DNA from: Escherichia coli
GTDB lineage: Bacteria; Pseudomonadota; Gammaproteobacteria; Enterobacterales; Enterobacteriaceae
Direction: 5' to 3' (one strand)
DNA length: 64,000 nucleotides
NCBI RefSeq assembly: GCF_003334405.1
Contig: NZ_QOWM01000001.1
The notes under the pieces are model-generated. The model ran no database searches. It had not been told where the DNA came from and saw nothing but the letters and a program-made list of their open reading frames with translations. Of this stretch, positions 63,343-63,882 are shown piece after piece. Both the position numbers and the translations under genes were made by a program. Positions within the stretch are counted from its first letter, which is position 1, and each line of letters opens with the position of its first letter.

Positions 63343-63882
63343 TTAATTAAACCAGCTGTCCGATTTGTTCTCTTCTGCTTTGCCCACGCTTTTCATCAGA
63401 TCGCGACCGCCTTCAGTCATATTTCTGTTGGCGTCAGCTTCAGATTGCACCACATCGGTTTGCGCAGCTTTGTGCTTCAGTTCCTGATCGATAAATTCGT
63501 TTTCTCGCTTAACGCGGGCTTCTTCTTTCGCCAGCGCCAGTTTTTGTTTCTGAATCTCTAAGCTGCGTAGCTCATCTTCATAACTTTGATCGCGTTTTTT
63601 GTCCGCAGAGGCTTCGGCGTCCAGTTTATCCTGACGAGCTTTCTTATTTGCCGCTGCCGTTGCCGCTCTTTTGTTAGCGGCGGCCTGGGCATTTGCGCGA
63701 CGTTGCTTCTCTTGCTGGATTTCCCTGTTGCGCTCCGCGACCCATTCGTCATGCTGCCTTTGCTCTTCATTTTTACCTTGCTGTTCCGCTTCTGCGACAG
63801 CAGAGAGTTGATCCTGCAATGATGAGGCGATAGCCGGATAGCTTAAGGAGGCTAAGATGGCGCAAAGAAAAACTTTCTTCAT
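63343..63882 (-). CDS. yfgI: Secreted, highly charged coiled-coil protein YfgI
   Basis: 179 aa, N-terminal signal peptide (MKKVFLCAILASLSYPAIASS), Lys/Glu/Gln/Ala-rich body. Confidence 0.8.
   Translation of the reverse strand: MKKVFLCAILASLSYPAIASSLQDQLSAVAEAEQQGKNEEQRQHDEWVAERNREIQQEKQRRANAQAAANKRAATAAANKKARQDKLDAEASADKKRDQSYEDELRSLEIQKQKLALAKEEARVKRENEFIDQELKHKAAQTDVVQSEADANRNMTEGGRDLMKSVGKAEENKSDSWFN

Follow-up and report, generated by a model that had tools for sequence, protein, structure and literature searches.

The uncharacterised Escherichia coli gene yfgI encodes a modular, predicted periplasmic protein and is linked to the outer membrane lipoprotein gene yfgH

Among the closest described systems to the locus analysed here are the SlyB-like lipoproteins, of which YfgH was only recently reported to stabilise the outer membrane (OM) specifically under stress (preprint 10.64898/2025.12.22.696046). 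Deletion of yfgH results in SDS/EDTA sensitivity, higher OM permeability and loss of OM proteins, and this deletion is suppressed by mutations in clsA (preprint 10.64898/2025.12.22.696046). YfgH itself, for which ring oligomers are predicted, protects the OM and OM proteins under stress, and the preprint regards it as a lipoprotein acting on its own and nowhere mentions YfgI (preprint 10.64898/2025.12.22.696046). In addition, genetic interactions between yfgH and lptD are aggravating, and cells that have lost yfgH are sensitive to vancomycin (PMC3219608). No dedicated periplasmic partner of SlyB or YfgH is mentioned in the SlyB/YfgH literature examined. The gene yfgI lies directly behind yfgH, and we describe here the layout of its product, the linkage of both genes and the function that these data suggest.

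Identity and layout of YfgI

The window, i.e. the whole stretch of 64,000 nucleotides that was analysed, contains an ORF for a protein of 179 residues, which a preliminary description had placed at 63343-63882 and named yfgI. Both the ORF, which runs on the minus strand, and its name proved correct, as the ORF is 100% identical to the annotated yfgI ('DUF5384 family protein'); the stretch quoted in that description corresponds to residues 56-130. yfgI is an already known, uncharacterised E. coli gene whose region is present in 5426/5426 complete E. coli genomes searched. The Pfam family PF17358 (DUF5384) matches residues 33-178 over its entire model (positions 1-145 of 145, E=9.1e-62), PHROG 1094 (phrog_1094) matches residues 1-179 (E=3.5e-104), and all 32 aligned homologues match the DUF5384 profile. 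Since the family is conserved (190 clusters at 50% identity with E<1e-10) and the protein was detected in K-12 by proteomics (PMC9508795), YfgI is more than a chance ORF. Its function had been called essentially unknown, which agrees with our searches apart from one nalidixic-acid phenotype (PMC3536626). A Pfam scan of the 32 homologues found no domain besides DUF5384, an NCBIfam scan of YfgI returned no family, and a sequence-profile search of the PDB gave one chance-level match only (E=0.097). Full-text literature searches yielded nothing for the family name DUF5384 and irrelevant matches only for b2506.

The features of the locus are compiled in Table 1. yfgH is truncated by the window end at 64000; 15 nt separate its TAA stop codon (63898-63900) from the yfgI ATG, with a strong AGGAGG ribosome-binding site between both genes. 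Downstream, the hairpin at 63275..63302 sits between the convergent genes guaA and yfgI and is likely a bidirectional terminator. A scan for sigma-70 promoters found none on the minus strand upstream of yfgH, where the region is very AT-rich and counts stay at shuffle level, and an Rfam scan of the yfgH-yfgI operon region gave a chance match only.

Table 1. Features of the yfgI locus, in window coordinates
Feature	Coordinates	Strand	Remarks
yfgI CDS	63343..63882	minus	single ATG-start ORF, 179 codons and stop; DUF5384 family
Predicted signal peptide, residues 1-19 (MKKVFLCAILASLSYPAIA)	63826..63882	minus	from the translation: n, h and c regions, AXA motif
Acidic N-terminal motif of the mature protein, residues 20-39 (SSLQDQLSAVAEAEQQGKNE)	63766..63825	minus	conserved
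Variable spacer, residues 40-96	63595..63765	minus	basic, Ala/Gln/Lys/Arg-rich, predicted helical
Ala-rich tract, residues 63-82 (ANAQAAANKRAATAAANKKA)	63637..63696	minus	length varies in frame among E. coli alleles
Conserved C-terminal module, residues 97-179 (RDQSYEDELRSLEIQKQKLALAKEEARVKRENEFIDQELK..A.TDVVQSEADANRN.TEGGRDLMKSVGKAEENKSDSWFN)	63346..63594	minus	83 aa, WF-ended
AGGATCA, 7 bases deleted in the O145:H28-type allele	63809..63815	minus	DNA alignment
Shine-Dalgarno AGGAGG	63887..63892	minus	4 nt before the yfgI ATG, read from the sequence
yfgH 3' end, glycine-zipper 2TM OM lipoprotein	63898..64000	minus	annotation of the identical locus L001
GC-rich hairpin flanked by A and T runs	63275..63302		terminator-like site; L001 4076-4103

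By inspection, YfgI starts with a signal peptide composed of an n-region (MKK), a 16-residue hydrophobic core with the h-region VFLCAILASLSYPAIA, and a cleavage motif in which A-I-A is followed by SS. Predicted cleavage at this motif leaves a mature protein of 160 aa and 18.2 kDa. Comparable signal peptides begin all aligned homologues, and for the homologue of phage P7 a sig_peptide of 20 residues has been curated, in keeping with the export proposed in the preliminary description. C7 is preceded by VFL and lacks the context of a lipobox, and we thus rejected YfgI as a lipoprotein. Together, the signal peptide and the missing lipobox indicate that YfgI would be a Sec-exported soluble periplasmic protein.

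The mature protein is very hydrophilic, with a GRAVY of -1.42, 39% charged residues at a net charge of -3, only 16% LIVMFWYC, 2.5% Gly and neither Pro nor Cys. It had been portrayed as consisting almost entirely of K, E, Q, A and R and as being of low complexity. The hydrophilic character stands, but these five residues account for 59% of the mature protein and, counted together with D, N and S, for 79%, and plain low complexity does not describe a protein whose C-terminal half is highly conserved. Judged from the alignments, YfgI is modular. The N-terminal motif has a net charge of 0 to -7 in 48/48 homologues, and its positions L22, L26 and V29 are conserved, with a hydrophobic fraction of 0.88-1.00 among 32 homologues. 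The spacer varies in length from 28 to 68 aa and carries a net charge of +1 to +16 in 48/48 homologues; none of its positions reaches a hydrophobic fraction >0.45 in the 32 homologues and it has no conserved hydrophobic seam. Within this spacer, gaps in the Ala-rich tract account for most of the shortened E. coli alleles (170-177 aa); alleles of 160 and 165 aa carry a deletion further downstream. The C-terminal module holds most of the invariant and near-invariant columns of the family. Conserved hydrophobic residues occupy positions 101, 105, 108, 110, 115, 117, 124, 130 and 131 and further positions 135, 144, 145, 155, 162, 163, 177 and 178, and conservation extends to invariant polar residues and glycines. 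This conservation of individual residues argues for a defined binding surface and not for a generic charged polymer.

AlphaFold2 renders YfgI as one helix spanning residues 2-178 (mean pLDDT 84.8, pTM 0.36), in which the spacer is modelled as helix with pLDDT >90. A Foldseek search with this single-helix model found no match in the PDB. An ER/K-type SAH was rejected as a class for this helix, since opposite-charge pairs at i/i+3 and i/i+4 reach only z=1.4 for the mature protein and z=-0.14 for the spacer against shuffled sequences.

Linkage of yfgI to yfgH on chromosomes and mobile elements

The preliminary description had missed, besides the modular build, that yfgI forms a conserved pair with yfgH, in which it comes second. 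With YfgI as the sole query (an alignment of 12 sequences), we retrieved 57 loci from Gamma-, Beta- and Alphaproteobacteria, comprising Escherichia, Citrobacter, Kluyvera, Xenorhabdus, Pantoea, Photobacterium, Pseudomonas, Nitrosomonas, Acetobacteraceae, Methylococcales, Alcaligenaceae and Wohlfahrtiimonas. A gene for a YfgH-type glycine-zipper lipoprotein is located directly upstream of yfgI on the same strand in 55/57 loci. This upstream homologue was identified at E values of 1e-13 to 1e-110 in 54/57 loci and, in the 55th, by a YfgH C-terminus (...NETRIQANATCPVVK, followed by the stop codon) upstream of yfgI. The two loci without yfgH lie at a contig edge and in a truncated remnant, respectively. 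The window likewise contains this two-gene module, i.e. a DUF5384 gene right after a YfgH-type gene on the same strand. The 15-nt gap between both genes recurs in Escherichia, Citrobacter and Kluyvera loci and typically ranges from about -4 to +21 nt in other taxa, larger negative gaps being artefacts of longest-ORF start calls. No third gene is conserved across the 57 loci, and yfgG is conserved near the pair only within the Enterobacteriaceae. In the yfgI loci of Escherichia and in some of Pseudomonas, a GGDEF/EAL gene is repeatedly found as a neighbour. Presence and absence also concern both genes, as S. Typhimurium lacks yfgHI orthologues and S. Typhi has both, as srgIL (PMC11619404). Among 268 retrieved homologues, no YfgH-YfgI fusion protein was found. 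One metagenomic protein (P0237) combines the C-terminal module with a long repetitive N-terminal region and has no yfgH upstream.

The pair moves as a unit on mobile elements. In tblastn searches, the YfgH query matched 205 and the YfgI query 200 plasmid records, of which 176 and 171, respectively, were from Escherichia, and the numbers outside this genus were equal for both proteins (Salmonella 24, Vibrio 3, Citrobacter 1, Cronobacter 1). Both queries also matched the same 13 phage records. On ColE1-like plasmids of 7.5 kb the pair adjoins a gene of the phosphoethanolamine-transferase superfamily, it is found on Salmonella and Citrobacter plasmids of 3.9-4.2 kb, and phage-plasmids of the P7, SJ46, JL22 and RCS47 type carry it as upf50.5 and upf50.0. 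The linkage of yfgH and yfgI is hence tight, conserved and mobile. This adjacency shows that YfgH and YfgI are functionally coupled and says nothing on how they cooperate.

YfgI as a putative partner of YfgH and alternative explanations

The explanation we favour, and hold to be rather probable, is that YfgI is an exported soluble periplasmic protein which is made from one transcript with yfgH and works with the OM stabiliser YfgH. Being almost entirely helical by prediction, the 160 aa of the mature protein would form a rod of up to ~24 nm if straight. Both conserved ends may be the working parts, and the spacer would then set the distance between them. We infer that one end would dock on the periplasmic face of YfgH or of the predicted YfgH rings, and the other end may contact a second component of the envelope, either the membrane surface or peptidoglycan. 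YfgI could thereby support or tune the stabilisation of the OM and OM proteins by YfgH under envelope stress. An AlphaFold2 model of YfgH and YfgI joined by a 40-aa linker, calculated with a paired alignment and in a form whose output gives no inter-chain contacts, reached a pLDDT of 69.6 and a pTM of 0.36, and the confidence of the YfgI C-terminus did not rise in this fusion.

Several observations count against YfgI as a partner of YfgH. YfgH alone complements the yfgH deletion, and YfgI is not among the top co-purifying proteins, of which five per band were listed for YfgH over-expressed alone (preprint 10.64898/2025.12.22.696046). Moreover, some lineages seem to do without YfgI: a deletion of 7 nt, whose junction is found in 31-33/5426 complete E. 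coli genomes, shifts the yfgI frame straight after the signal peptide in the O145:H28 lineage, where yfgH is intact. The converse decay, in which yfgH is lost and yfgI kept, also occurs and speaks against the partnership as well. In a second copy of the pair in Escherichia sp. E1V33, yfgH is frameshifted beside an intact yfgI, and yfgH of S. Typhi is annotated as a pseudogene (PMC11619404). The metagenomic protein P0237, with its C-terminal module but no yfgH upstream, likewise counts against it.

It could also be that yfgHI is mainly cargo of mobile elements which remodels the envelope against superinfecting phages or other invaders, analogous to the Sim functions of P1, and that the chromosomal copies are domesticated. 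In P7 and its relatives, the pair lies between pmgC/tubA and c4-icd-ant, and the same slot is filled in reference P1 by simC-simB-simA, which encode three signal-peptide proteins annotated as superimmunity functions. This slot between pmgC and c4 is one of eight variable regions in P1-like elements (PMC9603915). Among PLSDB plasmids, ~186 carry P7-type YfgI, compared to 141 with SimC and ~506 with close PmgC, small mobilisable plasmids carry the pair as well, and the chromosomal locus of E. coli has an AT-rich upstream region and adjoins an insertion hot spot. However, sharing a slot with sim is a positional argument only, and profiles of YfgI and YfgH showed no homology to SimA, SimB or SimC (hmmsearch --max, E >=0.47). 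The PADLOC defence models contain zero families that match YfgI, YfgH or the P7 homologues, the pair is a universal part of the E. coli chromosome and has stable chromosomal contexts across three proteobacterial classes, and the envelope phenotypes of YfgH in the host occur without any phage. We therefore regard a main role as cargo as unlikely. As it concerns the biological role and not the molecular partner, such a role would be compatible with YfgI being a partner of YfgH.

A more far-reaching version of the partnership with YfgH, to which we give a small chance, is a trans-periplasmic link in which the N-terminal motif of YfgI would sit on the YfgH rings in the OM and the rod would bring the WF-ended C-terminal module up to the inner membrane surface. 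Cells and P7-type phage-plasmids would, with the same small chance, gain a coupling of OM lipid nanodomains to the inner membrane, possibly used for the handling of phospholipids or cardiolipin, for sensing envelope spacing or for blocking the entry of phage DNA. Such a link is hinted at by the positive charge of the spacer in 48/48 homologues, the slot shared with sim, the suppression by clsA mutations and a membrane-anchored form of YfgI: in 2/105 full-length homologues, the W-containing motif is directly followed by a C-terminal transmembrane (TM) helix with a KNKK tail, and in either case the gene is still preceded by yfgH.

YfgI might instead be self-sufficient, with its neighbour irrelevant, and form a homo-oligomeric, Lpp-like coiled-coil rod in the periplasm. 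The composition is typical of long helices, AlphaFold2 gives one long helix at high local confidence, and hydrophobic positions of the C-terminal module recur at a spacing of seven residues (108/115/122 and 110/117/124/131). The long periplasmic coiled coil foreseen in the preliminary description is borne out as far as the long helix is concerned, but a canonical heptad coiled coil was not supported. In a crude home-made score of heptad a/d occupancy, which is not COILS or MARCOIL, the best register of YfgI averages 0.35 compared to 0.31 +/- 0.03 in shuffled sequences, and 9% of the shuffles reach the observed value. The maximum for YfgI is 0.62, whereas Lpp has a mean of 0.78 and a maximum of 1.0. 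Residues 30-100 contain no conserved hydrophobic column in the 32 homologues, so that some 70 residues are devoid of any conserved hydrophobic position, and the two seven-residue stripes lie ~200 degrees apart on the helix and do not form a single seam. The strict two-way pairing with yfgH is hard to square with an independent YfgI, and oligomerisation cannot be shown by the prediction of a monomer. A self-sufficient coiled-coil rod is hence highly doubtful.

Very improbable, in our view, is a disordered protectant of the hydrophilin/LEA-like type that becomes helical only on membranes or upon water loss and shields the envelope non-specifically. The extreme hydrophilicity with few hydrophobic residues would suit such a protein, some homologues carry tandem repeats of a short C-terminal unit (N.S.G.K..L...GKA), and AlphaFold2 often renders sequences of this kind as single helices, the pTM for YfgI being only as low as given above. 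Against this stand the low Gly content, the conservation of the C-terminal module residue by residue, including polar residues and Gly, across distant taxa, which is unusual for non-specific protectants, and the strict genetic coupling to one lipoprotein, which points to a specific partner.

Nalidixic acid, a hydrophobic quinolone, is taken up more readily once the OM barrier is weakened. A phenotype with this one drug cannot, for that reason, tell DNA repair from permeability. A role of YfgI in the DNA damage response, as its name 'nalidixic acid resistance protein' in some sources has it, is hardly credible: a phyletic-profile model predicted this function for yfgI with 62% precision and a yfgI deletion survived nalidixic acid at 7% of the wild type, compared to 98% for kasugamycin and 74% for ampicillin (PMC3536626), but a classical cleavable signal peptide takes the protein out of the cytoplasm and excludes a direct role on DNA, its gene is paired with that of an OM lipoprotein, it has no nucleic-acid-related domain (DUF5384 only in Pfam, none in NCBIfam), and for SdiA of Salmonella, which controls srgIL in S. 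Typhi, no significant change in nalidixic acid or UV sensitivity was found (PMC11619404). If YfgI works with YfgH, the nalidixic-acid sensitivity of the deletion could instead be a defect in OM permeability and not in DNA repair.

Judged from the comparative data, evolution seems to keep YfgH and YfgI together as a single unit, whether on chromosomes, on small plasmids or on phage-plasmids. Should YfgI be the missing subunit, models of how glycine-zipper lipoproteins organise OM nanodomains would have to include a periplasmic component, the label 'nalidixic acid resistance protein' in databases would call for a new interpretation, and the cargo in the sim slot of many natural P1-like phage-plasmids would have a testable function in envelope conversion or exclusion.

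Comparison with known envelope systems

Domain II of TolA is a long, highly charged and Ala-rich periplasmic helix without a clear hydrophobic seam, and YfgI appears to resemble it in composition and predicted shape. TolA is, however, held in the inner membrane by an N-terminal TM helix, energised by TolQR and equipped with the globular domain III at its end, whereas YfgI lacks a globular domain and its signal peptide is cleavable. With Lpp, YfgI shares the type of an abundant, small, helical and OM-associated periplasmic protein. Lpp is lipidated, forms a canonical trimeric coiled coil and is covalently bound to peptidoglycan via its C-terminal Lys; YfgI, in contrast, carries no lipid, does not pass the heptad test and has WFN as its last residues.

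The spanins Rz/Rz1 are similar to yfgHI in that an OM lipoprotein is combined with a long helical periplasmic protein (~150-180 aa) and is borne by phages, and the TM-anchored YfgI homologues (2/105) would, together with YfgH, link inner and outer membranes. The usual YfgI nevertheless has a cleavable signal peptide and not an N-terminal membrane anchor, the genes differ in order and size, and YfgH, a glycine-zipper lipoprotein of 150 aa, is no short Rz1-type peptide. YfgI was rejected as a spanin of the Rz type at an hhalign probability of 0.3% against an Rz-like spanin. Nor is yfgHI part of a lysis cassette, its neighbours being guaA on the chromosome and immunity and tail genes in P7. The simABC genes of P1 occupy the same pmgC-c4 slot, and both sets encode small exported proteins, but they have no sequence similarity to yfgHI and only the genomic position is common.

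The glycine-zipper lipoprotein features are present in the product of the upstream yfgH. YfgI was rejected as a SlyB-like lipoprotein because it has no lipobox cysteine, no 2TM glycine zipper and no beta domain, and an HMM built from 49 YfgH homologues scores the YfgI homologues at E>0.2 only. In comparison to the SlyB/YfgH lipoproteins, YfgI is thus non-homologous, but it shares both operon and inheritance with YfgH.

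Identity and genomic setting of yfgI

The annotated yfgI, a gene for a 'DUF5384 family protein', is 100% identical to the window region, which bears out the name given in the preliminary description. The region is found in all 5426 complete E. coli genomes, and its product matches Pfam PF17358 from end to end (E=9e-62) as well as PHROG 1094; NCBIfam holds no model for it. By these profile matches YfgI is a bona fide member of DUF5384/PHROG 1094, and proteomic data from K-12 include the protein (PMC9508795). Gene and family are already catalogued, hence the feature itself is already known.

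On one side yfgI is flanked by the convergent guaA and on the other by yfgH, located upstream on the same strand. The latter is cut by the window end at 64000, leaving its last 34 codons visible, and the full locus was taken from an identical genome (L001). The guaA–yfgI intergenic region is an insertion hot spot that is interrupted by IS1 in three top-scoring genomes. Furthermore, the record of phage TL-2011b (L069) ends with host yfgG-yfgH-yfgI adjoining the lysis cassette, which places the prophage between yfgI and guaA and means that the record includes host DNA; prophage sequence at this position has been reported (PMC10050402). A simple scan of the AT-rich region between yfgG, a gene tied to nickel and cobalt tolerance (10.1101/387399), and yfgH did not reveal any sigma-70-like promoter for the coding strand.

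Coordinates of yfgI, its modules and related features (L numbers, loci or records of homologues; L001, identical E. coli locus from another genome)
Feature	Coordinates	Strand	Remarks
yfgI ORF	window 63343..63882	minus	sole ATG-initiated ORF, 179 aa; translation includes the stretch quoted in the preliminary description
N-terminal motif			S-L-Q-D-Q-[LI]-x-A-V; short, acidic; conserved hydrophobic positions 22, 26, 29
Spacer	residues 40-96 (E. coli)		no conserved hydrophobic position; rich in Ala, Gln, Lys, Arg
Ala-rich tract	residues 63-82; window 63637-63696		AAANKRAATAAANKKA
C-terminal module			83 aa; nearly all invariant columns, polar residues and glycines among them; ends in aromatic pair W177-F178
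7-nt deletion	window 63809-63815		AGGATCA, just after signal peptide
guaA-yfgI intergenic region	window 63251-63342		
yfgG-yfgH gap	L001 5218-5527 (outside window)		310 bp, extremely AT-rich
GGDEF/EAL-type gene (pdeF)	L001 6071-8310		
Second yfgHI copy, Escherichia sp. E1V33	L014 3531-4537		diverged; YfgI 61% identical
Gene for metagenomic homologue P0237	L062 1050-2737		at least 409 aa
upf50.5 of phage P7	L063 4476-4997		YfgH-like lipoprotein
Phosphoethanolamine-transferase-superfamily gene	L064 3593-5134		plasmid CP056397

Modules, composition and predicted fold

YfgI starts with a classical Sec signal peptide, MKK-VFLCAILASLSYPAIA, with SS following the predicted cleavage site, in line with the earlier proposal that it is secreted. 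A lipoprotein can be dismissed, as the lone Cys7 has no lipobox context. K, E, Q, A and R make up 59% of the 160-aa mature chain (79% together with D, N and S), 39% of its residues are charged at a net charge of -3, LIVMFWYC residues amount to 16%, and Pro and Cys are missing. The chain is thus very hydrophilic, as had been described, but 'almost entirely K/E/Q/A/R' overstates its composition.

Alignments of close and distant homologues, with which the per-column profile agrees, divide YfgI into signal peptide, N-terminal motif, spacer and C-terminal module. Among 48 homologues the spacer varies from 28 to 68 residues and its net charge is positive in every case. Spacer length also differs within E. 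coli: the Ala-rich tract carries in-frame indels and accounts for most of the shorter alleles in the 160–179 aa range (e.g. 170–177 aa), the 165- and 160-aa alleles having a deletion further downstream. Hence, the spacer tolerates length changes even in one species. The invariant polar, Gly and Ala residues of the C-terminal module include D103, R126, S147, A149, D150, R153, S156, G158 and G167. From residue 108 to 131, the conserved hydrophobic residues recur every seven positions in two stripes, each one residue wide (108/115/122 and 110/117/124/131), which by our reading would lie roughly on opposite helix faces; such an arrangement points to two contact sides instead of a single seam. In several homologues (P0220, L038, L039, L045 and L046) a unit N-[VIL]-S-x-G-x-K-x-x-[LM]-x-x-x-G-K-A is present in two to four tandem copies ahead of the terminal aromatic motif. 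Small but diverse, the family numbers 252 clusters (50% identity) at E<1e-3 in a set of 1.84 billion representatives; at E<1e-10 there are 190.

There is no solved structure for any YfgI relative. With an alignment of 19 sequences as input, AlphaFold2 models residues 2 to 178 as a single unbroken helix with a mean pLDDT of 84.8, which exceeds 90 at 104 residues and drops over the last 40; the pTM of 0.36 is as expected for a rod. The preliminary description had envisaged a long coiled coil, of which the long helix agrees with this model and the coiled coil does not withstand a simple register scan of a/d hydrophobic occupancy in 28-residue windows. The mean best occupancy of YfgI (0.35) is close to that of shuffled sequences (0.31 +/- 0.03; 9% reach or exceed the YfgI value) and far from that of the true coiled coil Lpp (0.78), which speaks against a canonical coiled coil. 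Nor does YfgI resemble a single-alpha-helix domain of the ER/K type, since it shows no excess of oppositely charged pairs at i/i+3 and i/i+4.

Pairing with yfgH on chromosomes, plasmids and phages

In E. coli, 15 nt separate the yfgH stop from the yfgI start, and yfgI has the ribosome-binding site AGGAGG. A locus scan with YfgI as sole query and one genome per species yielded 57 loci spanning Enterobacteriaceae, Xenorhabdus, Pantoea, Photobacterium, Pseudomonas, Nitrosomonas, Acetobacteraceae, Methylococcales, Alcaligenaceae and Wohlfahrtiimonas. A YfgH homologue is encoded directly upstream on the same strand in 54 of them, mostly with gaps of 3–21 nt or short overlaps; the other three comprise a poor contig with the YfgH C-terminal signature upstream, a yfgI at a contig edge and a truncated yfgI remnant without signal peptide. 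Clustering of all neighbouring ORFs at the 57 loci revealed no third gene conserved across taxa. The pairing also holds in reverse, with YfgH as query, in two annotated collections: by tblastn, YfgH matched 205 and YfgI 200 plasmid records, with equal genus counts outside Escherichia and 176 versus 171 within it, and both matched the same 13 phage records. YfgH is the more conserved partner, with a mean identity to the E. coli protein of 63% versus 58% for YfgI and the higher value in 41 of 47 pairs. In three proteobacterial classes YfgI consistently accompanies YfgH, a result that we did not find in the searchable literature.

As to single neighbourhoods, ORFs near yfgHI at several Pseudomonas and Tolumonas loci (L034, L035, L048, L050 and L056) fall into one similarity cluster with a GGDEF/EAL-type gene, pdeF in E. 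coli; as such genes are numerous, this may be chance. The second yfgHI copy of Escherichia sp. E1V33 lies beside flagellar genes, its neighbours resembling fliF and fliG in their N-terminal sequences.

A YfgI homologue of 47–49% identity is present on about 186 PLSDB plasmids, mostly of 74–145 kb, classed as 'non-mobilizable' and with E. coli or Salmonella as hosts, and the pair also occurs in phages P7, SJ46, JL22, RCS47, phi456 and some 'P1' isolates. In P7, whose curation lists upf50.5 as an outer-membrane lipoprotein followed by the YfgI-like upf50.0, each with a signal peptide, the pair sits between the late operon (pmgC/tubA-tub-pmgB-sit) and the immunity region c4-icd-ant. The same slot in reference P1 holds the superimmunity operon simC-simB-simA, and simABC is one of eight variable regions in P1-like phage-plasmids (PMC9603915). 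SimA, SimB and SimC all have signal peptides; neither YfgI nor YfgH is homologous to any of them, which excludes a Sim identity, and YfgI is not a known defence protein either. Separate per-gene PLSDB tallies gave about 506 records for PmgC (at least 90% identity), 141 for SimC and about 186 for P7-type YfgI. Several RefSeq phage records (P7 upf50.5, NC_019445, NC_031129 and NC_042128) name the YfgH-like lipoprotein 'DNA methyltransferase', a label that traces to the description of PHROG 1277. This is almost certainly a propagated misannotation, because lipobox and glycine zipper are present and the original curators named the protein a lipoprotein.

Small plasmids carry the pair as well, at 67–75% identity in Salmonella and Citrobacter (3.9–4.2 kb) and at 61% on a 7.5-kb ColE1-like mobilisable E. 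coli plasmid (CP056397). The gene just upstream of the latter pair encodes a distant phosphoethanolamine-transferase-superfamily protein, which scores best against CptA (118 bits, with the cut-off at 404) and does not belong to the MCR family. The presence of an LPS-modifying enzyme next to these genes on a small mobilisable plasmid is in keeping with a role in the envelope. That the pair travels on plasmids and fills the sim slot of P7-type phage-plasmids was likewise not found in the searchable literature.

A possible role of YfgI in the envelope

In a December 2025 preprint, the Raivio laboratory characterised YfgH as a glycine-zipper lipoprotein of the outer membrane, for which SlyB-like rings are predicted and whose loss causes SDS/EDTA sensitivity, raised permeability and outer-membrane protein loss; it becomes essential upon knock-down of outer-membrane biogenesis genes, BamA, LptD and porins co-purify with it, clsA mutations suppress its deletion, and yfgI goes unmentioned (10.64898/2025.12.22.696046). 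A genetic link of yfgH to lptD and to vancomycin exclusion was known from earlier work (PMC3219608). The orthologous S. Typhi operon srgIL is SdiA-regulated, an E. coli yfgHI fusion is not, and S. Typhimurium lacks orthologues of the locus (PMC11619404).

YfgI is an exported, modular protein that is predicted to be helical. Its genetic coupling to YfgH holds whichever of the two serves as query and persists through horizontal transfer. In the most likely mechanism, which is an interpretation drawn from these genomic surroundings, one conserved end of YfgI would bind YfgH or its oligomers, the other would make contact with a further component of the envelope, the basic spacer would act as a tolerant connector of variable length, and both proteins would jointly stabilise the outer membrane. 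An AlphaFold2 model of the fusion YfgH-(GGGGS)8-YfgI, based on a paired alignment of 31 such concatenates, left YfgI a single helix and gave no readable interface (pLDDT 69.6, pTM 0.36).

Nalidixic acid is a hydrophobic quinolone, the entry of which rises through a weakened barrier. The only yfgI-specific phenotype, survival of a deletion mutant on nalidixic acid at 7% of wild type, was read as a DNA-repair role from a phyletic-profile prediction (PMC3536626). YfgI is not plausible as a DNA-repair protein, and the phenotype is most simply explained by increased drug entry, which fits the absence of an SdiA-dependent change in DNA-damage sensitivity in Salmonella (PMC11619404).

Several observations cut against a partnership. 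YfgH alone complements the yfgH deletion and, over-expressed, rescues knock-down phenotypes (10.64898/2025.12.22.696046). The 7-nt deletion frameshifts yfgI and leaves yfgH intact in 31–33 of the 5426 complete E. coli genomes, and every example listed is O145 or O145:H28; on this allele gene callers predict a 169-aa product with an alternative TTG start and without signal peptide. Decay also occurs in reverse, as the second E1V33 copy has yfgH split over two reading frames beside an intact yfgI, and a frameshifted yfgH beside intact yfgI is annotated in S. Typhi (PMC11619404). Lastly, the metagenomic P0237 fuses a long repetitive Asn/Asp/Ala/Lys-rich region to the DUF5384 C-terminal module and lacks a yfgH neighbour upstream; its frameshifted start may correspond to an ORF upstream that encodes a signal peptide, and a nearby ORF is perhaps of phage origin. 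YfgHI is no surprise in kind, and gives a concrete lead, inexpensive to test, on a question that was opened very recently.

Two of 105 full-length representatives (P0197 and P0223), whose genes both still follow a yfgH-like gene, carry an extra C-terminal transmembrane helix and then KNKK; in P0223 the helix directly follows an 'SWIW' motif aligned with the usual terminal 'SWF'. Judging from this sequence, the C-terminus of these variants must sit in the inner membrane, a hint that the rod is oriented with its C-terminal end towards the inner membrane and its N-terminal motif towards YfgH. If helical throughout, a chain of 160 residues would measure about 24 nm, comparable to the width of the periplasm. 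We consider it rather improbable that YfgI forms a rod linking YfgH to the inner membrane. Such a link would resemble a two-component spanin in topology, but YfgI differs in having no homology to Rz, no lysis context and no N-terminal anchor, and is thus not itself a spanin.
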